Origin: a virus
Lineage: Duplodnaviria; Caudoviricetes
Strand: one strand, 5' to 3'
Virus record (IMG/VR): IMGVR_UViG_3300028034_000004
Location: 1 to 56,448 of that record
Length of the DNA stretch: 56,448 nt
The notes beneath the pieces are model-generated. The model was not told the DNA's origin. It did no database searches and was given only the letters and a program-made list of their open reading frames with translations. Positions 1-37,679 of this stretch are shown piece by piece. The translations under genes and the position numbers were made by a program. Position 1 is the first letter of the stretch. Each line of letters starts with the position of its first letter.

Positions 1-3000
1 AGTATTATTAATTAATTCCTTATTAAACGCACCCGGTTCGGCTGTAGACTTAGCTCTATCAATCATACCTTTACGAGCACCATACATTGTAGTCCAATAA
101 TCAGCTGTATCAATACCTTCACCATATGATTTAGTTACAGGCACTGGTACGATTTCGTTTTTATTGTCAGCTAGAATACCCGGACCACCTAAAATCTGTC
201 TTACATTGTGTTCGTTACCACGAGCACCTGAACGCTGCATTACTACAAAGGCGTTGTCTGGGTTGTCATCGGTGATTTGTTTATAGACTTTCTTTTCAGC
301 TTCATTCATTATTTTAGCAATTTCTTTTTGAGCCTGTTCTTTGGGTTTCTTTCTCGCTTTCTCTACTTTCTTTTTGGCTGCGTCATAGATTTTATCTTTC
401 TTTTTCTTATCAATATCCAAATCAGAGATACCTACAGTAAAGCCACGCTTGTAGACATGTTCGTTACCTAAATTTTTAAGTTCATTTGCGATGTCTGCCA
501 ACTTGGAATTATCGAATTCCTCGTCTTCCCCAAGTTCGCTAAACATTTTCTTTAGGTAACCTTTATCTATGGCTTTATCATATTTGCGGTACTTTTTGGG
601 CAACACTTGGTTAACAATGATCTTACCAATCGTAATTATGTCACCATTAACTTTGATAGGATCTTCTTTGGACCACTTTTCTTTATTCTTTTTAGCTTCA
701 CGATATGCCTTCAAAGCTTCTGACTTAGATGAATACTCTCCTTTAAGTTCCTTCTTGTCCGGGTTTTTGGTTAGATAATACAATCCTAGAATCTGTTCGT
801 GTCCGGGAGTGTACATAAAGTTATTATGGCCCGGTCTGAATAAGTTTTTAGAAGGTAGCATTTTTTCTAAGGCTTCTTCTTTGGCTTCTTTGGATACAGG
901 TACGTGTACTGCCATGGTGTCATATACAACAAGACCACTGGCTAAAGTAAATGTCCAGACGTCGGGGACTGTTATATCATAAGCAGTTGTTTCTTTGGTA
1001 TATTCCTCAATCTTAGTTATTCTAGCCCATGTTACAGTTTCATCTTCGACTATTTCTTTCCACTTTTTCATAAGACCTTCTCCAAAGAATTCATCACCGA
1101 GTTTTTTGATTGCTCTTTTAGCAACTAATCTCGAAGTATAACCTTTTTTCATAGTGTTTGAAATAGGTGCATAGATTTTTCTTTCTTTAGAACCTACCGC
1201 ACTTCTTATTTTTTGCCCTAATTTTTCTGGTAAGGGTACTAAGTCATATCTAGAAGATGCCACTGCATCTGTTTTTAATTTAGATAAAGCTTCTTTTCTA
1301 TTTTCAGTAACTATTAATAGGTCATCTTTTACATTTTCCATTGTCACTGATGACATTGATACGTTTTGGTATTCCATATCATTTTGTTCATAAATGGTTA
1401 CATTAGATTTAAGCCCTAGTGATTTACAGAGCAGCTGCACTTGTTTAGATAATTCTAGCGACTTAGTATGATAAGAAAATTGAACCTGTTTTTTCTTTTT
1501 TGCTTTAGCTTTCACTTCTGTGATTGAACCATCAGTATCAAGTAATCCAGATAGTAAACCTAATCTGAACTCTTTGGATGTATTCATAAACCAAGAAGGT
1601 AAATGCTTATTTTCAGCACCATGTCCGAATAAATCGTAGAACATTTTAGCGATGTTACCTTCGCTAAATTCAGTCACTATCGACATACAATCATGACCTT
1701 CCCAGGTATGCGGCTTTTCATAAGTGTTAAAATTAATTTCTTCATTTAGCCAACTTGAAATTATTTCTTTCCACTTATTTATTAAAGGTTCACTTGAATT
1801 AGAAAGTTGAATTTTATTAATTAGTTTACCTTTACTAAGAGTAGCATTGCCATCACCAATGAAGGCACCAAATATATATCCGGTCTCTTTATTCAATGGT
1901 ATTTCTTTTTTTAACCTTGAATTGTAGCCGGCATTAACATAAGAATCATTAATCGGTGTAATAACATCAATAGGGTCTTCCGGTTCTTCTATCTCTGTAA
2001 CTACTGGCATCATATCGTTAATCTCGCCGACTGATTTTTTTATTTTTAATTCATCATTAATTACTGTTAATGAGTGATCGTCAGATACTAAATAATCATT
2101 CAGTCTGTTAGTTCTGATCTTTCTCATTTTCAGGTTTTTGTGAATGTGGAACTTACTCACCGGCATCCACTTTTTGTTTCCTTCTTCATCCATAGCCAGA
2201 ACAGTTACACCGTCTGGAACGTCGTATATTTCAGTATTATCCTTCACTTCCTTACTTTCTTCTATTCTCGGGAATTTCTTTAAATGAATGTTCCCTGAAA
2301 CAAACTCTCCATCAACAATTAATTCTCCGATGTGTCCTACCATTTTATCTTCCCCTTTATAGTTTGATACATACATCATATCACTTAAAGGGTATTCAGT
2401 CAATGGGGATTTTGATTTTTTCTTCATTTTTTCTTTGTTCCATTCCATAAAACCTTCATCAAGCCCGATAGAACAGACATCTAGTGCACAGTCGCCATCA
2501 AAATCTGCATTAAAACCACCTGTAACCAGTGAAGGTAATTGAATCGACTTACCTTCTATCAACTTTGGTTTGAAAGCCATTGTGGAGAACTTATGAAGTG
2601 AAGGTGCCCTGTTTAATATTACCGGTGTTTCCTCGGCAACTTCTTTTAACATCTTCTTTGCGGTTTCACTTCGTTTCTCCCAGTGCTCATCTCTGGCTTC
2701 AGCTCCTGGTATAGCCGCTTCCTGTGTTAACTTTCTAATGACCTGCGGCTTAAAGATATTCCAGGCCATTTCCTCTGGTAGACCTATCGTATCAATATCT
2801 AAGTCCGGTCCAGCCACAATAATACTTCTACCGGTCAAATCCTGACGTTTCCTCATGACTCTGTTTTGGAAGAAAGCATTTTTAGGCTGTGTTCCGGAAG
2901 TACCACCAATTTCTCTTAGGATACCCTTCTTACCTCGCCTTACGGCATCATTGGTGATAGGGTCTGATAAACCCTGTACCGCTTCCATCGACTTAAAGAG

Positions 3001-6000
3001 TTCCTTTCTCATATCCCCAATTTCCTTCTCATTAAGCAATCCTAATTCTTTATCTTGTTTCAGGGCTTTATTAACAAGGATGGTATGCTTATAGAGTTCA
3101 TTGATATCGGAAACATTTAAGCTGCCATTCGGTAATTCATACACTGGTCTGAACTTTGGCGGAAGTATCGGCATTTTAGTCAGAACATAATCTTCTGGTC
3201 TTTTATCCGTTTTCTTTAATGCTTTAAGATATCTTATTCTTTTGTGCAGCCTATCTTTTTTTGGAGCTGACTTTGTTTTTTTCGCTTCTTCTTTGGCTTC
3301 TTTAATTGCTTCATCAATATCTACTTGAGATAAAGCATCTTTAATTGCTTCACCACCGGTTTTTCCATTTAACTTCTCATCACCTGCTAAGACATTGTTA
3401 AATTTTTTGTTGGTGATGCCCAGAATGGAAACTATAGCGTTTTTAAAGACGGGATTAGGTATTGGTTCCTCTAAATTAATATGTGACCATTTACCCTTAT
3501 CCTCGGTGTCTAAACCACCGGTAATATCCGGATCAAAGAGTCCACCTTTTTCTTCTTTTAAGTCTTTAGCTCTTACAATAGTAGCATCATTAATCTCACC
3601 TGCTGACATTTCCTCAATGTCCTTATCGGTCATTGCCATCAGTTGATAATGTTTTTCGCCTTTTTTGACATTAACCCCGAGACCTTTTAATTCATCAATG
3701 AATTTATCGAATACAAATGGCGTCTCAAGCTTAGGTAAAGGTGCACCCACCTGGAAACTACGCCAGAATTCATCATTGCGTTGACCCTTAAGTGTAGACA
3801 TTTCTTTGAGGTTGTGTTTGGCACCGTGAGCAAGAAGTGTATAATTAGTCAAAATATCCATTGACTGTCCTGATGATTTACCACCTTGTATTGGCTGTTC
3901 GTTTTCATCATATCCTTCACCGACACCTCTGGCTGAGAATTTCTTTTTAGTTTGATGTTTTAGTTTTAAGAAATACTGTTTACCGGTAAAAATCGGATTT
4001 TCTAATTCCCCTTCGGTAGGGTCGATTATCTTTTCCTTTTCACTTAAACCGTGCTTTTTTAAGTCTTTTTTAATTTTATCCAAATAATCTTCACCAGAGA
4101 AATTATTAATTTTATATGGCTTACCAGTTTTATCTGCAATTTTACCTGCTGCAGTTTCAAGTAACTGGCTCGGGTTCATTCTCGAAGGCACCGTATGAGG
4201 GTTCAAGATTATTTCAACCGGTTTACCATCTTCATTGTGTGGTGCCTCGTTATCTGGAATAATCTTAGAGATAGTACCTTTATTCCCATAGCGACCTACT
4301 ATTTTATCTCCTTCTTTTGCTTTTTCTTCAGTTTCTACAATAATTTTAATCAGATTACCATTACGGACAACCTCATTAACTTCACCTTCGTTCTCATTAT
4401 CCCACTCAATCGTAAAAGGAGCCTGATCGGGAGCTAAGTTTTTGTGAATATTCTTTAAAAGGTAATCTGTTTCAGTTAAGTTTTTCTTTCGCAAGGCAAC
4501 GAGTAACTTATCACCTTTTTTGACTAACGCTCCTTTTTTAATTACACCTTCATCGTCCATTTTTTGGGCATTATCTGTTTTAAGTTCTCTAGGAAAAATT
4601 ATATTAAATCTTTCTTTATCCATTGTCGTATTGGTATCTTTTTCAAACTCGAAGGTATATAAATGTTCTGACCTCATCTTTTCGGCTGCACTATCTGAAA
4701 TTACAAGTCCATCTTCAAATGTGTAGCCTTTATATGGCATAAAGGCTACATTCAAATTAGTACCTAATGCCATTGTTCCATCTTTAGTAAAGTTTGAATC
4801 AGCTAAGAGTTCGCCTTTTTGAACTTTATCCCCCACTTCGACTTTAATTTCATGTGTAACCATTGAGGACCCACCAAGTGGAAACTTATCGTAAGTATCT
4901 ATTTCTATTTCATCCCCGTTAGATTTTTTAATGGTTAGTGGATCTGTTGAAGTAATTTCACCAGCAACAGGGGCTTTAATGGCATTGTTATTGCCGAGAG
5001 ACTCCTCAAAGGTGGAACCGTCTTCTGTTACTGCTGACTGTACCAGAGGGGCTTCTCTGTTCTTTAAAGATAATGCCTGTTCCTGCATCTTACCACCCAT
5101 CATTGCTCTGTTACCCTGAGTGTTTTGCAAAAATGGAATAAGGTTAGTTGTGTGGTCAAACATACTCTTATCAGAGAGTAGTATATAATCTACTTTAGAA
5201 GAGTCAACCTCATTAACTTCCTTTTTATCCATTACCTTAACCGTTTTATTTTTAAACTTCTTTTTCTTTTTATCATACTGGTCCGGAAAGGCAACAGTTG
5301 ATTCACTCATTTGTTTTGGTGATATCTTTTCGACTTCTTTGGTTTTGGCATTGATTACCCTGGTCTTTAATTCTCCATCCTCAATGTCAGTAGCGACACC
5401 AAGATGAAGGTTAGCACCAATCTTTTGTGACTCTGGTGTATGTACTGGATCTAAGAACCCAAATTGAGAAGGATTAATATTAATCATATCATCAGATAAT
5501 TGGTTGGGGGAACTTATTCCACCCTCGCCCATGATAGTTACTTTTCTGTAATTACCTAACGCCGCCAATGGGTTGGTTATTTCAGTAGCTGCAGTAATAT
5601 CGGAAGATGTGAAAAAAGATTTAATCGGTTCATTAAACAAATTAGGAGAAACTATCTTTTTAATTTCTTCGTGATTATCTACATTGTATTCTACATTTCT
5701 TTTTATTTTATCTACCGACTTATCAATTCTCTCTGACAGATGATCCTCAACTGACATAAATTTCTTAAACACTAAAGAATCTCTGTCATCTTCTTCCTCT
5801 TTATTCTGCATTACTTTTATAAGTTTTTGAGCAGCATGTAATATTAAATCAGCATTCACTCTTTCAAAACTCTTACCTAAAGTAATTTCTGTGGTCTCTT
5901 TATCCATTTCAGCTTCATTGAAATATGTTTTTATATCTTCTTTTGCTTTATCTAAATTGGTGTGATCTGAATAAACTATCTTTTTGGCGAAGTTCTTGAC

Positions 6001-6606
6001 AGCTTTCTTTGTCCTGTGTTCTTTTTCCCGTCTATTCGTGTCGAGGATCTCTTTCCCAAGGAATTGTTCCATATAACTATCTTTGATACCCATACCTTTT
6101 AAGAAGGCATATAAGGATATATTAGAACTCCTGGCGGAAATGTATAATATTTGATCTTCGGGGTCCATCTTGATTTTGAACCCTGGTTTGTTACCAACAT
6201 TGATTTGAGTCTGTAATTCGCCGTTGTTAGCAAACTTTGTGTATACTCCAGCTTTTAACCGCAGCTGATTTGATGCTTGATATTCATTACCATCAACAAG
6301 ATAAGTGTATCTCTGGGTTAGTGCTGGAAGTCTCATTATCTTAACTGTCTTATCATCAATTTTTTCACCAGTTAGATTATCCCAAAGTGTTAAATGGGCT
6401 CTGACTGGAAGAGTTAGACTTCTATTTTTAAGTTTTATTTCCTTTTGTTTCTTTAGAGAATGCAAAGCTTTGGTAGAACCAAACTTTAATTCCTCTAATT
6501 TAAGGGTATGTTTTTTACCTTTGACCGGAAATATCTTAGCAACAGACTGGTCTAATTTCTCTTCAATTTTATTTGTTATCTTTTGTATCTCTTCTTCTGG
6601 AAACAT
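1..6606 (-). CDS. rpoBC: Fused beta-beta' multisubunit-type DNA-directed RNA polymerase, intein-containing; 3' end lies outside the window
   Basis: Hand-translated open frame from ATG 6606 (RBS AAGGAGG at 6613-6619) to base 1. Beta motifs: FGFLDPVHTPESQKIG, GNRAMMGGKMQEQA, MPYKGYTFEDGLVIS, GDKIVGRYGNKGTIS, LNPHTVPSRMN, YFLKLKH. Beta' motifs: LPPKFRP, RKRQDLTGRSII, LNRAPSLHK, NADFDGD (2511-2491), bridge helix GARKGMIDRAKSTAEPG. Confidence 0.95.
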   Translation of the reverse strand, partial: MFPEEEIQKITNKIEEKLDQSVAKIFPVKGKKHTLKLEELKFGSTKALHSLKKQKEIKLKNRSLTLPVRAHLTLWDNLTGEKIDDKTVKIMRLPALTQRYTYLVDGNEYQASNQLRLKAGVYTKFANNGELQTQINVGNKPGFKIKMDPEDQILYISARSSNISLYAFLKGMGIKDSYMEQFLGKEILDTNRREKEHRTKKAVKNFAKKIVYSDHTNLDKAKEDIKTYFNEAEMDKETTEITLGKSFERVNADLILHAAQKLIKVMQNKEEEDDRDSLVFKKFMSVEDHLSERIDKSVDKIKRNVEYNVDNHEEIKKIVSPNLFNEPIKSFFTSSDITAATEITNPLAALGNYRKVTIMGEGGISSPNQLSDDMININPSQFGFLDPVHTPESQKIGANLHLGVATDIEDGELKTRVINAKTKEVEKISPKQMSESTVAFPDQYDKKKKKFKNKTVKVMDKKEVNEVDSSKVDYILLSDKSMFDHTTNLIPFLQNTQGNRAMMGGKMQEQALSLKNREAPLVQSAVTEDGSTFEESLGNNNAIKAPVAGEITSTDPLTIKKSNGDEIEIDTYDKFPLGGSSMVTHEIKVEVGDKVQKGELLADSNFTKDGTMALGTNLNVAFMPYKGYTFEDGLVISDSAAEKMRSEHLYTFEFEKDTNTTMDKERFNIIFPRELKTDNAQKMDDEGVIKKGALVKKGDKLLVALRKKNLTETDYLLKNIHKNLAPDQAPFTIEWDNENEGEVNEVVRNGNLIKIIVETEEKAKEGDKIVGRYGNKGTISKIIPDNEAPHNEDGKPVEIILNPHTVPSRMNPSQLLETAAGKIADKTGKPYKINNFSGEDYLDKIKKDLKKHGLSEKEKIIDPTEGELENPIFTGKQYFLKLKHQTKKKFSARGVGEGYDENEQPIQGGKSSGQSMDILTNYTLLAHGAKHNLKEMSTLKGQRNDEFWRSFQVGAPLPKLETPFVFDKFIDELKGLGVNVKKGEKHYQLMAMTDKDIEEMSAGEINDATIVRAKDLKEEKGGLFDPDITGGLDTEDKGKWSHINLEEPIPNPVFKNAIVSILGITNKKFNNVLAGDEKLNGKTGGEAIKDALSQVDIDEAIKEAKEEAKKTKSAPKKDRLHKRIRYLKALKKTDKRPEDYVLTKMPILPPKFRPVYELPNGSLNVSDINELYKHTILVNKALKQDKELGLLNEKEIGDMRKELFKSMEAVQGLSDPITNDAVRRGKKGILREIGGTSGTQPKNAFFQNRVMRKRQDLTGRSIIVAGPDLDIDTIGLPEEMAWNIFKPQVIRKLTQEAAIPGAEARDEHWEKRSETAKKMLKEVAEETPVILNRAPSLHKFSTMAFKPKLIEGKSIQLPSLVTGGFNADFDGDCALDVCSIGLDEGFMEWNKEKMKKKSKSPLTEYPLSDMMYVSNYKGEDKMVGHIGELIVDGEFVSGNIHLKKFPRIEESKEVKDNTEIYDVPDGVTVLAMDEEGNKKWMPVSKFHIHKNLKMRKIRTNRLNDYLVSDDHSLTVINDELKIKKSVGEINDMMPVVTEIEEPEDPIDVITPINDSYVNAGYNSRLKKEIPLNKETGYIFGAFIGDGNATLSKGKLINKIQLSNSSEPLINKWKEIISSWLNEEINFNTYEKPHTWEGHDCMSIVTEFSEGNIAKMFYDLFGHGAENKHLPSWFMNTSKEFRLGLLSGLLDTDGSITEVKAKAKKKKQVQFSYHTKSLELSKQVQLLCKSLGLKSNVTIYEQNDMEYQNVSMSSVTMENVKDDLLIVTENRKEALSKLKTDAVASSRYDLVPLPEKLGQKIRSAVGSKERKIYAPISNTMKKGYTSRLVAKRAIKKLGDEFFGEGLMKKWKEIVEDETVTWARITKIEEYTKETTAYDITVPDVWTFTLASGLVVYDTMAVHVPVSKEAKEEALEKMLPSKNLFRPGHNNFMYTPGHEQILGLYYLTKNPDKKELKGEYSSKSEALKAYREAKKNKEKWSKEDPIKVNGDIITIGKIIVNQVLPKKYRKYDKAIDKGYLKKMFSELGEDEEFDNSKLADIANELKNLGNEHVYKRGFTVGISDLDIDKKKKDKIYDAAKKKVEKARKKPKEQAQKEIAKIMNEAEKKVYKQITDDNPDNAFVVMQRSGARGNEHNVRQILGGPGILADNKNEIVPVPVTKSYGEGIDTADYWTTMYGARKGMIDRAKSTAEPGAFNKELINNT
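919..2490 (-). mobile_element. Intein with LAGLIDADG homing endonuclease (524 aa)
   Basis: Interrupts NADFDGD|TMAVHVP. Starts with Cys (CALD). Block B-like VSDDHSL; endonuclease motifs GYIFGAFIGDGN and GLLSGLLDTDGS; blocks F/G YDITVPDVWTFTLASGLVVYD, followed by +1 Thr. Confidence 0.92.
2341..2403 (-). promoter_or_regulatory. SigA/sigma70-type promoter, RBS and in-frame ATG inside the intein
   Basis: TTGACT (2403-2398), 17-nt spacer, TATGAT (2380-2375) with extended TG; upstream A-tracts; AAGGGGA 7 nt before in-frame ATG 2343. Confidence 0.7.
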
Positions 6607-6642
6607 TTCAAACCTCCTTTGAAATAACTTCTTATTTTGCAT

Positions 6643-11229: not shown

Positions 11230-11832
11230 ATGATGACAGGGATGGAAGCGTTGGAAAAGTATTATTATACTAAAGAAGAGAAATACTTTGAATATGGGAT
11301 CGAAGATACCATGGATATTATAATGAATAAATTGAAACAATATAACATTTACACCAGGGTAGAAGAATTTGTTCAAGAAGTTAAATTGAAAGTTTGGAAA
11401 GCGTTTACTTTTAATTATGATCCAAGCAGATCGGGAGTCTATACTTTCTTTGTTAATGTTTGTGACAATGCGATAGTTCAATATTTAAAGAGAATAAATA
11501 GATTCAAAAGGGTGGCTCTTTTGGAAGCTGTATCTTTAAATGAAACCATAGATGATGAAACCGAAACAGAGTTTATTGAATTGCTCCAGGAAGACGAAGA
11601 CCTTGAATATAAGGTTGTTAATTCAATTGAGTACGAAAGGTTAAAAAAGGTTTTCGTTTCGATGCTCACCCCAATGGAGAAAAATATATTCGAAATCCTA
11701 ATTGAGGATCACAACAGCCAGGCAGATTATAAATTAATTATGGAAGAGACTGGTTATAGAGCAAAACAGATAGATAACGCTTTGTGGAGAATCAGAAAAA
11801 AAGCCGAGAACGCAACGTTCTTAAAGGATTGA
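11230..11832 (+). CDS. RNA polymerase sigma factor, SigH (Spo0H)-like
   Basis: Region 2 EEFVQEVKLKVWKA..YDPSR..TFF; VSLN; region 4 LTPMEKNIF...KQIDNALWRIRKK, compared with SigH SIDNALQRVKRK. Confidence 0.85.
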   Translation: MMTGMEALEKYYYTKEEKYFEYGIEDTMDIIMNKLKQYNIYTRVEEFVQEVKLKVWKAFTFNYDPSRSGVYTFFVNVCDNAIVQYLKRINRFKRVALLEAVSLNETIDDETETEFIELLQEDEDLEYKVVNSIEYERLKKVFVSMLTPMEKNIFEILIEDHNSQADYKLIMEETGYRAKQIDNALWRIRKKAENATFLKD

Positions 11833-21423: not shown

Positions 21424-23052
21424 TCACTTTTTAATCATTTCATAAAATCTGAGAGCAGCTTTACCATCAATTTTTCCAATAGAACATTGTTGGATAGTTG
21501 GAACTATAGATTCGTTGGTTATCTTTTTGTTATAAACAGGGTCGAATTGACAATGTCCTAATTTACAACCTTTGCATATTGGCTCTAATTCTCCATTGAA
21601 AAAACCTTCATCAATATCTTCATATTTATTTTTTAATGAAGGATCCAGATAACTAATTTCATTTTCAATAAATTTTTCGTTGAAAAAGTTATTATTCTGA
21701 TATAAAATATCATCAATAACATTTATATGAAAGACCCCTTCTTTTTGCATAAGGTCTATTATCTTATTTAACTGTTTATCGTACTCATTTAAATTTTTAT
21801 CAGACCAACCAGCTGTATCTTTAAATCTAAATTGAAAATGATAAATATTTTTCTTGAGCCCTTCTAAAACAATATTATATAATTTTGAAACATTATTAAT
21901 TGAAATTTCTATCATCATCTTTATTTTAGCATTTGTCTCAAGTTCAAAATCAGGAATTGAATCAACTAGTATCACAGCATTTTCTTTAATATCAATCTTT
22001 TTAGGATTAACTAATAAAGGTAGAGTTTCCCCTTTTTTTATATATTTCATAACTTTAGTCTCCTTTTTTATTTCTTTTAATCTTTCCCAGTGTTTAAAGG
22101 CTTTTTCAATCATCATTTTAATTAATTTACAATAATTTGCTTGAATTTTCTTTTTAGGTCCATCAATATTTTCATAAAGGAATGAATCATTACCCCAACA
22201 GTTGCAACAATATGCCTCATACTTACATTTATTACATTTATTCCAATTAACATGTTCGTGACTCCTTTCCCCTTTAGCATACTTATATCTGGTACAGTTA
22301 AATTTTTTTCCAGTGGTGCCAACGTAACTTGCATCTTCAAGATCACAAACTATATCATTAATGTATCCTGGCTCATCAAGTCTATATCTTTCTAATTTTA
22401 TTTTTTCTATTTCATCAAGGTGGTCAATTATAAAATTATTAATTTTGTCTAACTCTTTGCTCAAGTTCTCTCTATATTTCTTTGTAAACCCTAAATCATC
22501 TAAATTTAAATAAATTGAAAAATTTCTAAAACCTAAACTATAAAGAAATTTAATATTATCATATGTTTTATTAAGATATTCTTTATCAATAACTGCAGAA
22601 ACTCCCAATTTAATTTTGGTATTATTTTTTATCCATTCATAATTTTTAATAACGTTTTCAAAATTGCCGCCTTTTTTCTTTTGTTCGAATATATCTTTTG
22701 GACCATCTAAAGAGATATCTATAGAAATTATATCTTCATATTTTTTATAGGTTTTTTTCATTCTGTCATCCAATAAAGAAAGATTAGTAGTCATATTAAT
22801 ACTTATGTTTCTTCTATTTTTGATAGCGTTACATTTATTCAATATATATTCAACTAATTCAAAATTTAATATAGGCTCTCCCCCAAAAAGTGTAAAAGAA
22901 ATAAGTTCATCTTTTTTAGTTTTTTTTAGAGACTCCTTAAATAAATCGTCAAAAACTTCTTTCGACATCATTCCTTTTTTATTGATGTGTTCACAATAGT
23001 CACAATTGTAATTGCATTCTTCGGTCAAAAATAAAGTATAAAGTTGGTTCAT
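21424..23052 (-). CDS. Radical SAM/SPASM enzyme fused to a C-terminal CXXX-repeat-maturase-like domain
   Basis: CNYNCDYC, FGGEPIL, TTN, ISLDG; CNKCKYEAYCCNC..NYC; second Cys cluster EPICKGCKLGHC..NKKITNESIVPTIQQC. Confidence 0.85.
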   Translation of the reverse strand: MNQLYTLFLTEECNYNCDYCEHINKKGMMSKEVFDDLFKESLKKTKKDELISFTLFGGEPILNFELVEYILNKCNAIKNRRNISINMTTNLSLLDDRMKKTYKKYEDIISIDISLDGPKDIFEQKKKGGNFENVIKNYEWIKNNTKIKLGVSAVIDKEYLNKTYDNIKFLYSLGFRNFSIYLNLDDLGFTKKYRENLSKELDKINNFIIDHLDEIEKIKLERYRLDEPGYINDIVCDLEDASYVGTTGKKFNCTRYKYAKGERSHEHVNWNKCNKCKYEAYCCNCWGNDSFLYENIDGPKKKIQANYCKLIKMMIEKAFKHWERLKEIKKETKVMKYIKKGETLPLLVNPKKIDIKENAVILVDSIPDFELETNAKIKMMIEISINNVSKLYNIVLEGLKKNIYHFQFRFKDTAGWSDKNLNEYDKQLNKIIDLMQKEGVFHINVIDDILYQNNNFFNEKFIENEISYLDPSLKNKYEDIDEGFFNGELEPICKGCKLGHCQFDPVYNKKITNESIVPTIQQCSIGKIDGKAALRFYEMIKK

Positions 23053-23948
23053 TATATCTCCCTCACTAAGTCAAAATATTTTTGAATAAAATTAGGACGA
23101 TTTATTTTTTCTTTAAAAATACTCCCATTGGCTTCTCTATTTTCTAATAAACATGTAAAACTAACACCTGCTATATTGAAAGGTCTTCTTTTGTTTTCAT
23201 CAATTCCATCATAAATATTGCCAAGTCTATTCTCCGGATAGTCATAATTTACACAAGGATAGATATCTCCCCTTTCATTAATCATTAAATGATTTTTGCA
23301 TTCGCAAAAACCTTTGGTTTCTATATTGAGGATTTGTTTTAAATTTTTATATTGCATACATTTTTTTCTGAAATAATTTTCAAATTTATCCCAATCAAGT
23401 TCTTCATCCCAATCAATTCCATTTGCAATTAATATATCATACCCCGGATAAATATTTTCTTTAATAAAATCTATAATTCTATCTAAACTAAAAATAGTAG
23501 AAGGAGTAACTACAGTATTCACTCTTGTAATGAAGTGCCTAAAAAACCAAAGGTTATTCATTACTTTATCAAAGGAATTGTTTCTGTTAGCATCTTGTAT
23601 ATCTTTTGGTCCATCAAAACTTAAAATGATGCTTATTCTGTCTTTGTTTTTTAAAAATATTTCCTGTATTTTTTGATTTAATACTGTTCCGTTGGTTATT
23701 ATTTTTAATTTAATTTCAGGAAAATTTTCCGCAAATATATTTATTATTTTCGGATTTAACAAAGGTTCCCCTCCGGTAAACAGTATCCTGTCGAAGTTTT
23801 CATCTGAACTCTTTATAAATTTTGATATATTCTGCGCCATATCAGATGACATCTTTATTTTCTCAGCTGGTAGGTCACAATAAGAACAATTTAAATTACA
23901 ATTTTTGGTTGGTTTAATAAATAATGTGTATCCATCCAATTCCCTCAC
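23052..23948 (-). CDS. Radical SAM enzyme with shortened SPASM/twitch domain
   Basis: CNLNCSYC, FTGGEPLL, ITNGT, LSFDG, GDIYPC, LGNI. Confidence 0.9.
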   Translation of the reverse strand: MRELDGYTLFIKPTKNCNLNCSYCDLPAEKIKMSSDMAQNISKFIKSSDENFDRILFTGGEPLLNPKIINIFAENFPEIKLKIITNGTVLNQKIQEIFLKNKDRISIILSFDGPKDIQDANRNNSFDKVMNNLWFFRHFITRVNTVVTPSTIFSLDRIIDFIKENIYPGYDILIANGIDWDEELDWDKFENYFRKKCMQYKNLKQILNIETKGFCECKNHLMINERGDIYPCVNYDYPENRLGNIYDGIDENKRRPFNIAGVSFTCLLENREANGSIFKEKINRPNFIQKYFDLVREI

Positions 23949-24957: not shown

Positions 24958-25360
24958 CCCCCTTAAAACCATCTACCATCACACCCATCACAACCACCAG
25001 CACAAGTTCCTCTACAAGACCCAGAACATGATCCTGTACAGCTAATACATGTTGAAGAACACGTTCCACCACACCCTTCACATAATCCAGCACAAGTTCC
25101 ATTACACCCACTATCAGTTCCCACATCTGGTTTACTAACAAAGAAATTGGTTCTATTCCTTAAGTCATAAAAATGGCTAGATTTTATTATTACTTTATTA
25201 TCTTTTAAATTAACATCATCTAACCAGGAATAAGGCTCTATCAAATCTAAACTATTTCGATAATCATTTATTATACTTCCTAAAATTAAATCTTCCTTTT
25301 GTACTCCCAATTGAACACCCCCTTAAAACCATCTACCATCACACCCATCACAACCACCAG
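24958..25360. repeat. Identical 43-bp direct repeat (24958-25000 and 25318-25360)
   Basis: CCCCCTTAAAACCATCTACCATCACACCCATCACAACCACCAG occurs twice, 360 bp apart. Confidence 0.95.
24963..25310 (-). CDS. Cys-x-x-x repeat protein, putative rSAM modification target
   Basis: IKSSHFYDLR motif, then a 12-Cys tail ending GGCDGCDGRWF. Confidence 0.85.
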   Translation of the reverse strand: MGVQKEDLILGSIINDYRNSLDLIEPYSWLDDVNLKDNKVIIKSSHFYDLRNRTNFFVSKPDVGTDSGCNGTCAGLCEGCGGTCSSTCISCTGSCSGSCRGTCAGGCDGCDGRWF

Positions 25361-26873
25361 AGCAACTACCATAACATGTTCCGGTACAACCGCCTTTACA
25401 TGTCCCAGCACAATTTCCGACACAATTACCACCACAAGTGCCACTACATCCTTGACATAAACTAGCACATCCCGAGTTACATCCATCACTTGGCACATTT
25501 CTTCGTATCATCTCATCATCGATATAACTTATTATTTCATTAGTGTGTAATGCTTTTATAAGAGTTTCTTTAGCAATCAAATCATCTGTAAATTCTATCG
25601 TTTTAACTACATTATCTATTTTTGAGATATTTATTGTTCCTGCATGATCTGAAACTATTGGTTGATCAGCTGTTATAATAAATTCTAAAGTATTATTCCC
25701 GAAAATTAATTCACTATATTGGATTGTTTCGTTAATTAAAATTGGAGCGTCGCTTAAAAAAGTTACATTTTTATAACTGGTTCCATTTAAAAATATTTCA
25801 TATGCTATTTTTATTGGTTCTGCATTGATTTCTCTTAAGTACCCGCTAACATCAACATTCATAGGGTTTACAGATTCAACATTTGTAGGACTTACAGTTA
25901 TATCAGTTAATTCAATTCGAGGAACATAAGTATAAGTATCTTCTCCAATATATTCCGGAACATTTGATACCTGACCATAGTCATCTCTTCCCCAAGCAAA
26001 ATTTATTAAAGTTCCATTTTTTAGACTACCATCTGTGGTCATTGCTAAAGCATGGTTATATCCGGCATCAACTTCTGAAAAAATAAGTTCTGGATGATCT
26101 GGATAATCTGGATAATCTAATATTTGATTATAATTATCTCTTCCCCAAGCTTCTAATTTTCCGTCTGATTTCAATCCAACTGTAAAATTCTGACCCGAAT
26201 CTAAATCTGTAAAATTATTTAAATAAGGTGTATTAGTAACCTGACCATAAGTATCATCTCCAAAGGAAATTATAACCCCATCTTCTCGGAGTGCAGCGCC
26301 GTGTGATTCTCCGGCTGATATTTTACTATAATTATTTCCAGTGGGTGTATCAATCCCAACCCCTTTTAAGGTGCCATCATACATTAAAAGGAGAACAAAA
26401 TTGTGGCCAGCTTCCACATCTATTATACCACCGTGAACGGGTAGATCATTTAAGATTGGATTATCCCCAATACCTTTTATGTGACCGCTTTCGTCAAGAC
26501 CCACTCCAAAATCACTGCTTGCTGTTATTTTGACAAAATTATTATCAGGTGGAATATTAGATATTAAACCCCAACTAGTTATAGAACCACCAGATAAAGC
26601 TAATGAAAATTCATCCCCGGCAGCAATTTGTTCAAATGTTCCACTCGGGGTATTCGTTATCAATCCATTAGCATCGTTACCAACAGTTTCTAAATGACCA
26701 TCAAAATATCTAACAGTTGTATGATTGTTACCTGCAGCTAGATGATTTTCGAAATCAGTAGAATTAAGTGACAATTGAGGAGGTATTTCTAAAGTTGAAT
26801 CAAAATCAACATTTCCATCAATATAATTTATAACATTAATGTCGATTGAAGAATTAAGATCATTGGTTGGCAT
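25323..26873 (-). CDS. RCC1-repeat beta-propeller fibre/receptor-binding-like protein with C-terminal Cys-x-x-x repeat tail
   Basis: Repeats IAAGDEFSLAL, ISAGESHGAAL..DG, WGRDNYNQ, VDAGYNHALA; Ig-like segment; IKALHTNEI; 13-Cys tail ending GGCDGCDGRWF. Confidence 0.85.
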   Translation of the reverse strand: MPTNDLNSSIDINVINYIDGNVDFDSTLEIPPQLSLNSTDFENHLAAGNNHTTVRYFDGHLETVGNDANGLITNTPSGTFEQIAAGDEFSLALSGGSITSWGLISNIPPDNNFVKITASSDFGVGLDESGHIKGIGDNPILNDLPVHGGIIDVEAGHNFVLLLMYDGTLKGVGIDTPTGNNYSKISAGESHGAALREDGVIISFGDDTYGQVTNTPYLNNFTDLDSGQNFTVGLKSDGKLEAWGRDNYNQILDYPDYPDHPELIFSEVDAGYNHALAMTTDGSLKNGTLINFAWGRDDYGQVSNVPEYIGEDTYTYVPRIELTDITVSPTNVESVNPMNVDVSGYLREINAEPIKIAYEIFLNGTSYKNVTFLSDAPILINETIQYSELIFGNNTLEFIITADQPIVSDHAGTINISKIDNVVKTIEFTDDLIAKETLIKALHTNEIISYIDDEMIRRNVPSDGCNSGCASLCQGCSGTCGGNCVGNCAGTCKGGCTGTCYGSCSGGCDGCDGRWF

Positions 26874-27993
26874 TTTCTACCTCCTCAATTTTTTCAAAGA
26901 AATATTTGTTTGCTTTATACTGTGCTTCAACCATATCACAAAACATTCCTTCTCTTCTAAAAATAGAACCGCTGACATCATAATTGTAGGCGGTACACCA
27001 GGAGCACATTTTTTTATATTCACATTCATTACATTTCTTTTTGTATTCTCCTTGAATTGTTTGAAGATTAACATATTCAAATGGTTTTAATTTATTTTGA
27101 TCTATCCCATTATAAATGTCTCCTATTGCTAAATTATCCCTTTGCGATAATGTTTGAAACCTATGACAGGGATATAATTCTCCATTAATTCCTATTGAAA
27201 TCATGCTTGTTCCCGAGCCACACCAATTTCTATATTTTAAATCTTCGCCGTCACTATTATAAAGATGAGTAAAATAACCGACATAAATATCTTCGTAAAG
27301 CCCCGTATCTATTAAATAATCAGCTAATTTAATTAATTGATTTTTAAAAATTTCTGGATCATCCTCAGTCCAAACATTTTCAAAAACATTGTTTATTTCT
27401 ATTCTATCAAGACCTAAATCTATCAAATGTTTAACACTTTCAAAAAGATAAGGAAGGGTATCATGATTTACCGTAGCTTTTATATTATTCCAAGGGAAGG
27501 TTTTTCTCCACCAATCAAAATCTTCCATTATTTTATCATAAGACCCATTTCCTTCTACTGTTTTACGATTTAAATCATGAGCTATTTTAGAACCATCTAA
27601 ACTTATTCCTACGCTTAATTTATTTCTATTTCGTTTTAAAATTTCTTTTATTTTGTCGGTAAATAAAGTTCCATTTGTTGTTATCGAATAAATTCTATTA
27701 TTTTTCCAAGGATGGTCCAAATCAATTAGCTTCTCATCTATGTATTTTATTATATCATACATTAAGTCAAACTCAACTAAAGGTTCTCCTCCAATAAATT
27801 CGAAAATTCCCTTATCATGTTTAACCGGTTTGTTTAATATATAATCAACTGCATCTTTGGCAACATCCAAATCCATCGTAATGTGTTTTTTGTTTTCCTC
27901 ATAACAATAAGTACATCTTAAATTACATTTTTCGGTAATCATAAATGAAACTGTTTGTGCAATTGGATTATCTTTTGGTTTTTTATATCTCAT
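26860..27993 (-). CDS. Radical SAM/SPASM peptide maturase, CXXX-repeat target family-like
   Basis: CNLRCTYC, FIGGEPL, TTNGT, NNVFENVW, NWCGSG, YPCHRF, CNEC..MCSWCTAYNY..FCDM. Confidence 0.9.
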   Translation of the reverse strand: MRYKKPKDNPIAQTVSFMITEKCNLRCTYCYEENKKHITMDLDVAKDAVDYILNKPVKHDKGIFEFIGGEPLVEFDLMYDIIKYIDEKLIDLDHPWKNNRIYSITTNGTLFTDKIKEILKRNRNKLSVGISLDGSKIAHDLNRKTVEGNGSYDKIMEDFDWWRKTFPWNNIKATVNHDTLPYLFESVKHLIDLGLDRIEINNVFENVWTEDDPEIFKNQLIKLADYLIDTGLYEDIYVGYFTHLYNSDGEDLKYRNWCGSGTSMISIGINGELYPCHRFQTLSQRDNLAIGDIYNGIDQNKLKPFEYVNLQTIQGEYKKKCNECEYKKMCSWCTAYNYDVSGSIFRREGMFCDMVEAQYKANKYFFEKIEEVENANQ

Positions 27994-33400: not shown

Positions 33401-35167
33401 CTAAACCTCCTTGATATTTGTTTTAAATATTCTATTCATTTCTTCCATTTCTTCTATTTCATCTATTTTGTTTTGAATACCTTCTTTTAAAATTTCGGAT
33501 GTATCATTTTGTAGTCGGTGCTTTCTTTCATTTTCAACCATCACCATTTTTCTTATTTCGACGCCGATGCTTTTAGTGACATCGTTAGCTTCGTTTAAAC
33601 AGGCTAAATCATTTAATAACTGCTGGGTGGTGCTTGCATCTTCTTCATCTAAATCTAAAGCTCCACCAAAGTCGCCAGCTTCTATTAATTCACTCATGTG
33701 ATCTAACCCTAGATAATCAGCCATCATAACCACTCCCGAAACCATCGTTGTTGTTTCGTGAGTAATATTTAAGGCTTGCTCTAATGCATTAACCGGTGTC
33801 TCCTGTTCGAATGTATTTAACCTATTGACTATTATGTTTTTGAAACTTGTTGCAGCATTTAAAAATTCATTAAATACCTGCAGCAAATCTTTTGTGACCT
33901 CTCCCCCTTCTGATAATAATTGCAGGACGAGATAAACCTCGTTATATCTTTTCATTAGTTCACTCCAATAAGGGGCGGAAATTGTTGTGTATGCTTGAAT
34001 GACATCATCTATTAGTGGAGCATAAATATTTTCATAAGCTAACAAGGCGTTGCCGTCAGTCGACGTTATCTCATTTAACTTCTCAATAACAACTCCAATT
34101 AAATTGGACCATGTGCCTTTATTTAATTTAGAAAAATTGGCATTGAGCTCCCAATCATCAAAATTATTAGCTGAAACAGTTGATGCTATTAAAGGAAAAT
34201 CTACATCGATGGGTTGGGTTACTTTTGTTTGAATATAATCGTCTATAGCTTTTTTTAATGCATCTGAACCTTGATACCTGTTTAAATTTTTCATTAAAGG
34301 ATTAACACTATATGCCCAATCTTCAAACATCATTTTGTCTGCTGTATCTAAATTAGATATTGCTTCTCTAATTAATCTTAGACTTCCCATCATATCATTA
34401 ATCGAATCCTTAAAATTTTCACCAACTTCGTTAAAAAAATCAGATAAATTTTTGAATTCGCCAGAGGACGGTCCTGTTAATCTATCTACCGCCTCTTCTA
34501 TTTGTTCCCACAAATTCAAAAGTTTAACTAAATTTGATATGATACTCTCATTTTGAGGATCATCTAAAATATTTTTTGCATTTTCTAATTTATATTTTAA
34601 ATTATTGATGGTGTTAGCTGTTAAATCTTCAGTTATATTTTTGTTATAAATATCACTTTCTAATCTTATTAAAGTGGTTTTGACTTCTCCTATATCACGA
34701 CCTACCCTCGGTACATCATAGTTCATTAAATCATTCAATTCATACTGTTGCATTTCCTTAAAATTTTCAGCTGAAAGGTTAGTCCAATTATATGTTAATT
34801 CATTAATAATTTCTTCTAAGTATTGAATTAATATATCTATCGTCTCTAATTCACTTTGAAAAAACTCCTTTAAACGATTTACTTCTTTAACTAACACCGT
34901 TCCAAAAGCGCTAGGGTTTATCAAAGCTATATAAGAAATCGTATTTTTTAGTGTTTCAAATTCTAAATCATCACCTATCATATCCTCTATCTCACTGGCT
35001 CCAGCATCCATTAGAACACCAATTACAATATTTTTAACTTTACCCCAGGTGCCATTTTGTGACGCTTCAATTGTGGCATTTAATTGTTGCAGGTAATCTA
35101 AACTTTCTTTTTGATTATCTATCATACTTTGAAATTCTTTACTTGCATTTTCTAAAGAACAAGCCAT
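33401..35167 (-). CDS. Hypothetical acidic helical protein (probably structural)
   Basis: 588-aa ORF with GGAGG RBS within the tail operon. Confidence 0.75.
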   Translation of the reverse strand: MACSLENASKEFQSMIDNQKESLDYLQQLNATIEASQNGTWGKVKNIVIGVLMDAGASEIEDMIGDDLEFETLKNTISYIALINPSAFGTVLVKEVNRLKEFFQSELETIDILIQYLEEIINELTYNWTNLSAENFKEMQQYELNDLMNYDVPRVGRDIGEVKTTLIRLESDIYNKNITEDLTANTINNLKYKLENAKNILDDPQNESIISNLVKLLNLWEQIEEAVDRLTGPSSGEFKNLSDFFNEVGENFKDSINDMMGSLRLIREAISNLDTADKMMFEDWAYSVNPLMKNLNRYQGSDALKKAIDDYIQTKVTQPIDVDFPLIASTVSANNFDDWELNANFSKLNKGTWSNLIGVVIEKLNEITSTDGNALLAYENIYAPLIDDVIQAYTTISAPYWSELMKRYNEVYLVLQLLSEGGEVTKDLLQVFNEFLNAATSFKNIIVNRLNTFEQETPVNALEQALNITHETTTMVSGVVMMADYLGLDHMSELIEAGDFGGALDLDEEDASTTQQLLNDLACLNEANDVTKSIGVEIRKMVMVENERKHRLQNDTSEILKEGIQNKIDEIEEMEEMNRIFKTNIKEV

Positions 35168-35179
35168 TTAAAAACCTCC

Positions 35180-35911
35180 CTATAAATATTTCTTAATCTT
35201 TTTCATTAACGATTTTCTTCTTCTAGACACTGTGGCTGGTGACACCCCGACTGCGTCGGCGACTTTCTTTGCTGAGTCTAATTTTGGTTTACCGCCAAAA
35301 CCAGTTAAATATTCGAAAATCAATCTTTCTTCACCGGTTAAAGTCTGATAAACCATCATTAAAGTATCCATTCTTTTTGGGTCCTCAGCCATATCAATGG
35401 AAAGTCCAGCTTCCATTAAATTAGAACCTGTTAATTCTTTCCTCAATTCTTTTTCCATACGCTGCACTTCGGCTAAATCCCAGTTCATTTCTTCTGCCAT
35501 TTCTTGAGCATTGGGTTCTCTACCTTTTCTGATTTCTAAGTCTTCTTTAGTTTTAACATAATTATCTATCTGGGTTGCTCTGTTTTGTGGTATTCTAGCG
35601 ACATCCTTATAATTTTTAACATAATTTCCAACAGATTTTAAATAGTTAGTTACAAATGTCGATAGTTTAGTTCCATAAGAAGGATCATATCTATCTATAG
35701 CTTCTTTAAATGCCTTACGACCTTCACTTTCGACGGCAACCATTGGTATTCCATAATTTCTATAGTTGTTAGTCTTATTGTGGATAATTCCTTTCATTTC
35801 TTGATACAATTCTCTAGCTTTCTGTTTGGCCATGTATTCGTTGCCGGCATCTTTTGCTCTTTTATATTCTCTCCAAATTTTTAAATCTTTATCGCTTTGA
35901 TTAATTGGCAT
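35180..35911 (-). CDS. RNA polymerase sigma factor, group 3 (SigF/SigG/FliA-like)
   Basis: EAIDRYDPSYGTKLSTF, ARIP, GREPNAQEMAEEM, LTGEERLIF, KVADAVGVSPATVSR. Start moved to ATG 35911 (AAGGAGG). Confidence 0.9.
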   Translation of the reverse strand: MPINQSDKDLKIWREYKRAKDAGNEYMAKQKARELYQEMKGIIHNKTNNYRNYGIPMVAVESEGRKAFKEAIDRYDPSYGTKLSTFVTNYLKSVGNYVKNYKDVARIPQNRATQIDNYVKTKEDLEIRKGREPNAQEMAEEMNWDLAEVQRMEKELRKELTGSNLMEAGLSIDMAEDPKRMDTLMMVYQTLTGEERLIFEYLTGFGGKPKLDSAKKVADAVGVSPATVSRRRKSLMKKIKKYL

Positions 35912-37679
35912 TGTTACCCTCCTTAGCAAACTTTCTCGGGGAAGTCTCATCCATTCTTCCTTTCAACGCTTTAACAGCATTTCTCCTTTGAATTGACACT
36001 GTTTCAGTGATGTCGTTCCCATCAACAGTTCTAGTTGTTTTCAAACTAATATCATAAGGTCCGCCGTATAGTTCCCCATCTCGCATTGTAATGTCTAAAG
36101 CATCTCTATATTCTGTAAATGTTGCTATCTCTCTTTTAAAGTTATTTTGGAATGTTATTCTATCGGTTGTACTATAATAATCTCTTTGTAGTTCTTCGAT
36201 GTTTTCTTTCATAGATACCATGTTCTCACTATCTAAACTTATCTTAGTTTCATACTTATCGAAAGCCCCACCCACATCCATATGTTCCTGATAAGTATTT
36301 TGAATCTCATTTACACCGAACTGGTCGATCGAGTACCATCCTGCAAGCTGTGGAAATTTCTCATTGAATGGTCTAACATGACTCATTGTTAGAGTTGTTG
36401 TTGCATAACCACTGCTCGGGTTAATGTTATGACTTGCAGCCACTAAATATCCAACTAGAGGTATTTCCTTATCGAGTATCAATGCAGGGAACCCGGGAAG
36501 TATATCTGGTTTAAATGCGACCTCCACGCTTAATGGAACTGTTTTATATTTTTCTTTGTAGTATAAATAATTAGTAAAACTTGATTTACTCTTTACCTGT
36601 TGTTCCCAACTACCTTCTGTAAACCCAATAGCGAGCGTTTGGGATAAAGGCAGAGTAGTCTGATAAGGAATAATCCCCTTAAATTTTTCTTCGTCTGTAA
36701 TTGTACTTCCAATGCCATTTTCTGCATCGAAATTTTCTAGTATTTCAGCCGGAGAATAATATCCAGCTGACTTAGTCCCTATTATATCATCTACCAATCT
36801 ATATCTTGTTGGTATTTGGGTTTCGTCTTTTTGATAATTAAAAGAAGTATTCTCGTCCGGGAACACTACATTGCACGCTGGTGGTGTAGTAAATTGCAAA
36901 TTGGGCTTCATCACATAAGAATTCAAGGGATCGCTTTTTGTCATTCCAGGTATTGGCTTTATGTCGTATTGAATAATTTGGGCTACAGAATAAATTAAAT
37001 CAATCACCCTTGTCATTGTTGAGGACTCATTTAAAATTTCACTATAAATATTTTGAATAACTTCGAGTGAGAAAACAGTTTCGGTCAAATCATTTTCTAT
37101 GATATTGAATCGTTCTTTTCCTATTTTGTACTTAGGCACATATTCATCTAAGAAAGCATTTCCACCCATTAAGGTTTCCAATACATGTGTTATGGAGTCG
37201 GTTATAGGTTGACCTTTTCCAAAAGATTCGATAAATTCCGCCATAACCTCTAAACCACCACTAGAAGCCATTTCGGTTTCCTCATATTCTTTGTTTTCAA
37301 ACCTTGAGTCACCATAAAAGACAGATTCTTTTGGTCCATAAACACTGGAGGCATTCATGAAGTCATATATTCTGGCATTATCCATAAACCATTTTACATC
37401 TTTAAACTTTAAAGTCACTGTTCTATCTTTAGGTCTTTTAGAATAACCGTTACCTATGTAAACTCCTTCGCACAGCATTTTCCATTCATCAGTTTTTTTC
37501 TCCTTGTAGACCATCAAACCATTGGTATTTTGTTTTAAATCGAACGCTTCGTGGTAAGGTGGAATATTGATATTAAAGGTAGTTGTATCATTGTGAGATA
37601 TAGTAACTGATCTAAATGGTATTTCTATTCCTTCTAGATATAATTTAAATGATAATCTTTTGAGCTGATAATTATCCAA
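35901..37679 (-). CDS. Baseplate hub-like protein
   Basis: KLYLEGIEIPF; FKPDILPGFP..GYLVAASHNI..TTLTMS; position after tape measure. Confidence 0.6.
   Translation of the reverse strand: MDNYQLKRLSFKLYLEGIEIPFRSVTISHNDTTTFNINIPPYHEAFDLKQNTNGLMVYKEKKTDEWKMLCEGVYIGNGYSKRPKDRTVTLKFKDVKWFMDNARIYDFMNASSVYGPKESVFYGDSRFENKEYEETEMASSGGLEVMAEFIESFGKGQPITDSITHVLETLMGGNAFLDEYVPKYKIGKERFNIIENDLTETVFSLEVIQNIYSEILNESSTMTRVIDLIYSVAQIIQYDIKPIPGMTKSDPLNSYVMKPNLQFTTPPACNVVFPDENTSFNYQKDETQIPTRYRLVDDIIGTKSAGYYSPAEILENFDAENGIGSTITDEEKFKGIIPYQTTLPLSQTLAIGFTEGSWEQQVKSKSSFTNYLYYKEKYKTVPLSVEVAFKPDILPGFPALILDKEIPLVGYLVAASHNINPSSGYATTTLTMSHVRPFNEKFPQLAGWYSIDQFGVNEIQNTYQEHMDVGGAFDKYETKISLDSENMVSMKENIEELQRDYYSTTDRITFQNNFKREIATFTEYRDALDITMRDGELYGGPYDISLKTTRTVDGNDITETVSIQRRNAVKALKGRMDETSPRKFAKEGNNAN

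Follow-up and report, generated by a model that had tools for sequence, protein, structure and literature searches.

Bacterial RNA polymerase is thought to need a dimer of the alpha subunit as a platform for its assembly and the omega subunit as a chaperone. In the RpoBC fusions of Helicobacter and Wolbachia, and in the engineered beta::beta' protein of E. coli, the C-terminus of beta is tethered to the N-terminus of beta'. These cellular RpoBC fusions keep alpha and omega, are much larger than the protein considered here and are encoded in ribosomal-protein operons. The enzymes of the phiKZ/AR9 type and of the crAss-like and P23-45 phages are phage double-psi beta-barrel polymerases without alpha or omega, and some of them are packed into the virion. 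Here we describe an RNA polymerase gene at positions 1..6606, minus strand, of a stretch of 56,448 bases (IMGVR_UViG_3300028034_000004; 'the window'), which is an entire IMG/VR viral contig estimated to be ∼31% of its genome. With a probability of roughly 0.8, the gene belongs to an uncultured, myovirus-like phage of ∼180 kb and specifies its sole large RNA polymerase subunit, made as a precursor in which a complete but trimmed beta is fused head-to-tail to beta'. The catalytic loop of this precursor is interrupted by an intein. An earlier reading of the same DNA from its letters alone (the sequence-only reading) had already proposed a single-chain viral polymerase but had missed that the fused layout is the norm of a large family and no singular case.

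Among the published systems, cited here and below from excerpts, the mReC lineage of metagenomic tailed phages (97 contigs, Weinheimer and Aylward 2020) resembles the window in that it includes IMG/VR contigs and has a bacteria-like beta and beta' apart from their cellular homologues. The mReC subunits are deep-branching and their genes lie among virion genes (PMC7481178). The excerpted description makes no mention of a beta-beta' fusion, an intein or a sigma factor. The mReC capsids, found in only 8 contigs, matched PF07068 (Gp23) (PMC7481178); this family gave no match at E ≤ 1 in the window, and the head protein of the window (48176-49117) gave no Pfam match. The phiKZ/AR9 enzymes are made of 4-5 pieces and, in the excerpts, have no sequence-recognisable sigma homologue (PMC7824862, PMC13282480), and the crAss enzyme is too divergent for beta/beta' profiles (PMC7481178), whereas the window polymerase is recognised by the Pfam models of bacterial domains, at up to 1.8e-60, and its contig has putative sigma-70-family genes. 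A literature search that included these excerpts (PMC7481178, PMC7824862, PMC13282480) found no description of a fused cellular-type beta-beta' in phages.

Two cultured phages of ∼150 kb, Cobetia phage Carin-5 and Yersinia phage vB_Yru_GN1, also have a trimmed bacteria-like beta and beta', but as separate genes and with only 25-27% identity to the window polymerase. Carin-5 forms a long branch outside the fused family and is a separate, unfused, trimmed phage polymerase lineage. In its record (L013, 155 kb) the sigma gene is followed by those for beta' (1083 aa) and then beta (927 aa), each of the two large ones carrying the annotation 'subunit beta'.

The sequence-only reading held that the polymerase had been missed by the open reading frame (ORF) track. 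An ORF listing in which open ends were allowed gave a minus-strand frame at 6642..1, of 2214 aa, with no stop before base 1; a track that requires a stop misses this frame because it runs off the first base of the window. The start that had been given, ATG 6606-6604, has AGGAGG (6618-6613) six bases upstream while nothing comparable precedes the ATG at 6642, which is the first in frame, and ATG 6606 is probably the better start of the two. Residue numbers are nevertheless counted from ATG 6642 throughout. The end of the contig removes ∼385 residues of the frame. The whole frame is present in a near-identical IMG/VR contig, L005, where it has 2599 aa, or 2587 aa from the ATG corresponding to 6606. 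If the C-terminus is the same as that of L005, the window precursor would have 2611 codons from ATG 6642 or 2599 from ATG 6606, and the mature spliced chain would be about 2075-2087 residues long.

A search with profile hidden Markov models (HMMs) of the Rpb1 and Rpb2 domains had been suggested as a check. The Pfam models place Rpb2 domains 2, 3 and 6 (residues 155-920), Rpb1 domains 1 and 2 (998-1384), an intein splicing domain with a LAGLIDADG domain (1468-1906) and Rpb1 domains 3 and 4 (1933-2164), in this order, within the single frame. Rpb2 domain 6 scored 205.5 bits (cut-off 23.4), domain 2 scored 28.3 bits (cut-off 21.7) and domain 3 scored 33.4 bits (cut-off 21). The beta module (residues 13-993; 3664..6606, minus strand like every other part of the gene) aligned with residues 43-1057 of the 1104 residues of the beta chain 8gzg_C, which bears out the earlier estimate of only ∼980 aa for beta. 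Since the match to 8gzg_C ends at query residue 993 and Rpb1 domain 1 begins at 998, beta and beta' are joined with essentially no linker. The conserved junction region lies at 3592..3720, and the cellular beta end and beta' beginning map to HMM positions ∼985-1090. The N part of beta', residues 994-1384 with Rpb1 domains 1 and 2, follows at 2491..3663.

Equivalents of the flap-tip and clamp helices had been described as retained, and the alignments to PDB beta and beta' chains agree. In the flap, which has its flap-tip helix, TDYLLKNIHKNLA aligned with EEKLLRAIFGEKA of 8gzg_C, the flap-tip helix equivalent LTETDYLLKNI being located at 4447..4479. The first helix of the clamp coiled-coil, SDINELYKHTILVNKAL (3061..3111), aligned with SDLNDLYRRVI of solved beta' chains. 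The catalytic Mg-binding motif NADFDGD, at 2491..2511, forms the final residues of the N-extein. The C part of beta' (1..918) opens with the +1 Thr (TMAVHVPVS) and includes the bridge-helix region along with Rpb1 domains 3 and 4. The rest of beta', with Rpb1 domain 5, the trigger loop and a four-Cys site, falls beyond the contig end; domain 5 and the trigger-loop region were seen in the full-length relative P0002, which is the L005 frame. No alignment to PDB beta' chains was obtained over the region of the N-terminal beta' zinc ribbon (four Cys), and the window exteins contain zero cysteines. The mature chain of the full-length relative has five, four of which make up the conserved beta' cluster, the second four-Cys site, kept in P0002. 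With a beta of ∼980 aa, no beta' zinc ribbon and no Cys in the window exteins, the polymerase was aptly called streamlined.

A stop or frameshift at the junction had been named as something to look for. The junction is covered without indels by contigs of 4 public runs from 4 studies, although the run with the best coverage may be the source sample of the window. One contig of 11,865 nt covers nt 700-3900 with 17 substitutions and no gaps. Among 1.84 billion representative proteins there are 2326 matches at E ≤ 1e-30, cellular subunits included. When residues 560-1384 were compared with these representatives, all of the 150 best matches carried the junction in one protein (E ≤ 1e-175; 39-66% identity apart from the query's own cluster). 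All 259 collected relatives (259/259) span the junction. Of these, 230 reach the C-terminus of beta', 14 end at the split point of the Arash type described below and 15 are fragments or other forms. The junction peptide belongs to the family consensus. Given that every relative spans the junction and most continue to the end of beta', the fusion is a family trait and no artefact. A search of shorter proteins returned mainly junction-spanning pieces, and the few matches with beta only or beta' only (P0275, P0308, P0315, P0316) are marked partial or are of unclear completeness. The contigs of the family reach 186 kb. The metagenome runs that contain the gene of the window phage itself belong to 16 studies, and the sites are subsurface, groundwater, oil-field and freshwater ones; no RNA run was among the sequencing runs listed as containing it. 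The sequence-only reading of a single-chain phage polymerase is borne out in essence. The window polymerase is a member of a large, real and barely described family, and its particular features are its full fusion and a currently mobile intein in the catalytic loop.

That the polymerase is phage-encoded, as had been proposed, follows from the structural genes on the same contig, which specify baseplate wedge, tape-measure-like, sheath, major head and prohead protease proteins. In the cellular loci used for comparison, which are only 26-32% identical to the family, rplJ and rplL lie upstream of rpoB, whereas the window locus has phage genes instead. A phylogeny, also suggested earlier, was obtained with IQ-TREE (quick search, LG+G4, support from the Shimodaira-Hasegawa-like approximate likelihood ratio test, SH-aLRT) on 72 rows and 1910 columns. 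The input comprised 30/80 genome-contig loci, four mislabelled cellular loci, 31/131 intein-free full-length relatives and six proteins of beta with the N part of beta'. Similarity to the family decided the choice of the cellular rows, which come from Bacillota, Bacteroidota, Pseudomonadota, Planctomycetota and candidate phyla. Branches with SH-aLRT 100 separate the 41 family rows from the 30 cellular rows, so that the polymerase is nested neither in Bacillota nor in any other of these rows. The phage family differs from the cellular RpoBC fusions in this separation, none of the 30 rows being Helicobacter or Wolbachia, and in having no beta' zinc ribbon. A cellular origin of the gene was considered and rejected on the phage structural genes of the contig and the separate clade. 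Nine rows that are both fused and split, with Salmonella phage Arash and Vibrio phage D69 among them, group together as a single clade, and this clade is part of a basal trichotomy with fully fused rows. As cellular beta' is unsplit, the most economical history has a single fusion and, after it, a single split, though the tree fixes neither the root nor the order of these events. Records labelled as Staphylococcus, Enterococcus and Acinetobacter phages, and one Salmonella record (L009-L012), were found to be ordinary bacterial rplJ-rplL-rpoB-rpoC loci.

The nearest cultured phages are the Vibrio phages D181, D148 and D69 and Salmonella phage Arash, with 32-34% identity (Arash 34%). Their polymerases belong to the same protein family and have the same linker-less junction, and those of Arash and D69 fall on the same side of the tree. 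Arash and D69 are also like the window in having no detectable alpha or omega, and their genomes are of ∼180-187 kb. Arash also carries a phage sigma gene, gp10 (PMC10585845), and the window has two sigma-like genes. In these Vibrio phages and Arash, however, a gene of 1525-1527 codons specifies beta together with the catalytic front of beta', and what remains of beta' has a gene to itself (gp206, 1525 aa, and gp216, 606 aa, in Arash), whereas beta' is continuous in the window. The Arash-type cut falls ∼85 residues after the catalytic motif and the second gene is 4.7 kb away. Furthermore, Arash has AADYDGD and no intein while the window has NADFDGD and an intein. The match to Arash stops at NADFDGD because the intein of the query starts there. 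A split of Arash precisely where the intein lies was considered and rejected, gp206 continuing for ∼85 residues past the motif.

The injected virion polymerases of N4, phiKZ and crAss-like phages transcribe early genes. The enzyme described here may likewise be packed in the virion and injected for host-independent early transcription, a tentative proposal with something less than even odds which would refine the reading of the gene as a fused phage polymerase and not exclude it. The only basis for packaging is found in Arash, where the fused chain Gp206 was the most detected protein of purified virions, with 3516 spectra and 100% coverage, and where Gp216 (the C part of beta'), the sigma factor Gp10 and the helicase Gp217 were also detected (PMC10585845). 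The positions of certain genes are in keeping with it: in Arash and D69 the polymerase gene sits two genes downstream of the annotated portal gene, or of a gene in the equivalent position, and one of the sigma-like genes of the window lies in the tail module, between the genes 33401-35167 and 35901-37679. However, the Arash authors cautioned that enzymes abundant at the infection stage may contaminate the preparation, in which 88 proteins were relabelled as structural (PMC10585845). Arash is, moreover, only 34% identical, and the window polymerase is not beside a portal gene but faces a divergent block of small genes.

The sequence-only reading reported no alpha or omega gene in the window, and a six-frame search agreed, giving no match to PF01000 (alpha) or PF01192 (omega) at E ≤ 1 where 14/14 control genomes matched. 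Six-frame searches of Arash (180.8 kb), D69 (186.7 kb) and the L005 record likewise gave no match at E ≤ 1 to PF01000, PF01192 or PF01193, the last being an alpha model that was run on these three and not on the window. Two sigma-like genes are present. The larger is an ORF of 256 aa at 35183..35950, minus strand, with a probable start at M14 (nt 35911). It matched phrog_351, 'RNA polymerase sigma factor', at 3.2e-20, and one of its homologues is named a sigma-70 family factor by NCBI, while its matches to Sigma70_r3 (22.1 bits, cut-off 25.3) and to region 2 (12.2 bits) are both below cut-off. The second, smaller protein, of 200 aa at 11230..11832, plus strand, appears to have a sigma2-sigma4 layout; it matched Sigma70_r2 with 18-19.7 bits, below the 24-bit cut-off, and looks like a SigH or extracytoplasmic function (ECF) factor from language-model features (0.97) and from its predicted structure, which has a template modelling (TM) score of 0.73-0.74 to SigH-type clusters.

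A complex was modelled between beta' residues 994-1384 and the sigma-like protein of 35183-35950. Its ipSAE, an interface score, was 0.76, and the best of 3 controls had 0.00. The modelled interface joins beta' 1185-1233, in the clamp coiled-coil, to sigma residues 42-82; at least 45% of the contacts are common to the runs, and the predicted local distance difference test (pLDDT) value of the partner is at least 69. Computation, in the form of two sigma-like genes and a docking model checked against controls, thus supports the sigma dependence that had been claimed. It is unlikely that the phage sigma-like proteins redirect the host RNA polymerase instead, in the manner of T4-type late sigmas, while the fused enzyme uses another factor or none as in phiKZ/AR9. 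Many large phages without a polymerase of their own do encode sigma factors thought to act on the host core (PMC7824862), and both ORFs score below the Pfam cut-offs. Nonetheless, the flap tip and the clamp coiled-coil, which are both of the sigma docking sites, are retained, the model docks sigma region 2 on the clamp helices with 0.76 against 0.00 for the best control, and Arash and Carin-5 likewise pair such polymerases with sigma genes.

The claim of an uninterrupted frame from beta into beta' stood in part. All of the peptides quoted in its support are where they were said to be, but a 524-aa intein (919..2490) interrupts the polymerase and the 3' end is cut. NADFDGD (1378-1384) is directly followed by CALDV... 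and the polymerase resumes 524 residues later at TMAVHVPVS. Pfam scores were 42.4 bits for Intein_splicing (cut-off 35.8) and 47 bits for LAGLIDADG_3 (cut-off 22.5). The insert starts with Cys1 (Cys1385) and is followed by a +1 Thr (Thr1909). Its block B reads S-D-D-H at intein residues 136-139, where T-x-x-H is expected, block F contains Asp (AYDITVPD), the end is ...LVVYD and there are two LAGLIDADG motifs in the endonuclease core (1881-1843 and 1557-1522). From these motifs the insert is classed as a class-1-type LAGLIDADG intein in the Mg-binding loop. It shares Cys1, the block B His, the block F Asp, the +1 Thr and the two motifs with those class 1 LAGLIDADG inteins that have an atypical C-terminal Asp or Gln and, like class 1 inteins, it occupies the most conserved site of an essential enzyme. 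It differs from canonical class 1 inteins in ending with Tyr-Asp and not with His-Asn. The NADFDGD Mg-loop motif becomes continuous only after the predicted splicing and, because the intein interrupts this loop, the frame specifies a precursor that should be inactive unless spliced. Comparison of the intein with PDB sequences gave 0 matches at E ≤ 0.01, and no paper was found that combines 'intein' with 'NADFDGD'. An empty site, with NADFDGD directly followed by TMAVHVPVS, exists in P0155, an 88% identical relative, and family members without the intein mostly have T or A after NADFDGD.

Comparison with L005 shows two alleles of the intein in nearly the same polymerase. The N-exteins are identical at 1383/1384 residues and the available C-extein parts at 302/306, whereas the inteins are identical at only 324/512 aligned residues (63%) and start with Cys1 in the window and Ser1 in L005. 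In nucleotide sequence the two genes do not differ over their first 2400 bases, 29/32 of the N-extein differences fall within the final 552 bases before the intein and the 918 bases after it contain 49 differences. The codon changes are 29 synonymous to 1 non-synonymous in the N-extein and 40 to 4 in the C-extein part, 69 to 5 in total. This pattern resembles the co-conversion tracts that homing or exchange of an intein leaves behind, the exteins being under purifying selection. In one sequencing run (X9), a contig links place 3351 to 979 via 15 foreign letters, with loose ends at 996, 2431 and 3334; this join and the loose ends inside the intein are probably due to other intein alleles or relatives in the same samples.

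Inserts of at least 120 residues were surveyed in 261 family proteins using a profile from 35 intein-free members. There were 137 inserts in 107/261 proteins, 64 of them at the catalytic-loop site; among the 259 relatives only, 106 proteins bear inserts and the catalytic loop has 63. The ends of 40/64 catalytic-loop inserts were resolved by pattern. The +1 residue is Thr in 30/40 of these, the last two residues are x-Asp in 14/40 and Ser-Asn in 14/40, and the first residue is Ser or Cys in 21/40 and a non-nucleophile in the others.

It is very unlikely that the Tyr-Asp-ended intein cannot splice, in which case the gene would be dead in this strain or the intein would be a conditional switch delaying polymerase activity. 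The end is non-canonical and no solved intein was matched by sequence, but the exteins are under strong purifying selection, with 69 synonymous against 5 non-synonymous changes, and 14/40 resolved inserts of this site share the Asp end, the proteins around them being otherwise intact. Splicing proceeds by the same four steps when an intein ends in Asp, Gln or Glu, and Asp-ended ones are known to splice (review, PMC4031507).

That the fusion arose as an artefact of assembly or from a frameshift, or that phage DNA was wrongly joined to a bacterial rpoBC fragment, is hardly credible even for a metagenomic contig with the gene touching its end, given the independent contigs without indels, the family-conserved junction, the distinct phage clade and the presence of phage genes where cellular loci have rplJ and rplL.

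In the preferred reading, that of a fused phage polymerase made as a precursor, the class-1-type LAGLIDADG intein (Cys1, terminal Asp, +1 Thr) would excise itself after translation. Splicing would link NADFDGD to TMAVHVP and restore the Mg-binding loop, giving an active enzyme as a single chain of ∼2075 aa. The covalent link between beta and beta' would replace the assembly functions of the alpha dimer and omega, which the phage lineage does not appear to encode, and the enzyme would be independent of host subunits. Promoters would be recognised by the phage sigma-like proteins, with region 2 placed on the clamp coiled-coil and the C-terminal part presumably on the flap tip. The intein, placed where the gene is most conserved, would be a selfish passenger that is currently mobile, and no designed part of the enzyme.

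Several points weigh against this reading. A divergent alpha or omega could sit in the rest of the genome or go unrecognised by the Pfam models, and the alpha or omega used by the enzyme might be that of its host. Both sigma-like ORFs are under the Pfam cut-offs and could instead redirect the host polymerase. The mark of 0.76 was reached by 58/80 solved complexes and by 2/110 mismatched pairs, counts that give only a rough calibration since the alignments for the complex models were self-made. Because bacterial sigma-beta' complexes have been solved, a model that passes this mark shows likeness and not binding. The intein ends in Tyr-Asp, without the usual C-terminal His-Asn, and with this end and the block B Ser its splicing could be slow or fail. 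The relatives were gathered with a junction-spanning query and a length filter, both of which favour fused forms, so that the counts do not show unfused members to be absent. Finally, the tree comes from a quick search, has no support values other than SH-aLRT, contains no archaeal or eukaryotic rows and has cellular rows picked by similarity.

A bolder version is rather unlikely when taken as a whole: that the spliced ∼2075-aa chain and a small phage sigma make a complete promoter-specific machine without alpha, omega or any host subunit, that the intein acts as a timer and that the full fusion is ancestral to the Arash-type split. If true, this would be the smallest sigma-dependent cellular-type RNA polymerase, and a timer would keep the enzyme inert until splicing, for example until after assembly or injection. 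If the preferred reading is true, a widespread natural enzyme that has swapped alpha and omega for one peptide bond while keeping sigma docking would provide a compact model of sigma-dependent initiation, and the fused polymerase could serve as an orthogonal transcription module for synthetic biology. The intein data make a clean natural case of homing at the catalytic centre of an essential enzyme, with two alleles and an empty site among close relatives.

Some further forms of insert were seen in the family. In about half of the resolved catalytic-loop inserts the first residue is a non-nucleophile (Q, E, M, H, R, N or A), and these inserts finish with ...LSN before a +1 T. Judged from their ends they are inteins of a second type, which cannot begin splicing by the standard first step. 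In other relatives Asn replaces a catalytic Asp before the insert, either as NADFDGN followed by C... (P0118, P0128, P0131, P0175) or as NADFNGD followed by S... (P0053, P0068, P0138, P0181, P0200); this could be a shifted splice register or an inactive copy. Atypically split inteins are a type known from metagenomic phage terminases. Six proteins (P0276-P0280 and P0104) end ∼25 residues past NADFDGD with a conserved tail, S-V-x-G-D-T.... The end of the contig is not the cause, as two of them lie on contigs of 47-70 kb. The tail looks like the short N-piece of an atypically split intein and, if so, the polymerase would be rejoined by trans-splicing.

Elsewhere in the window, a tRNA scan gave 0 genes. 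The structural region contains three radical-SAM-like genes on the minus strand (phrog_1802, up to 2.3e-59) at 21424-23052, 23052-23948 and 26860-27993, and beside them a gene for an RCC1-repeat protein at 25323-26873. The L005 record is classed as having direct terminal repeats, yet is rated 25% complete. Three polymerase-bearing phage contigs of 162-204 kb (L015, L016, L017) are filed in metagenome-assembled genomes of Leptolyngbyaceae, Thermoguttaceae and Bacteroidales, which is either mis-binning or a hint of the host. Downstream of its polymerase, L005 encodes two giant RCC1/Kelch-repeat proteins of 739 and 1467 aa (L005:19964-26586), one with a CBM96 module, which are probably host-recognition or surface proteins.

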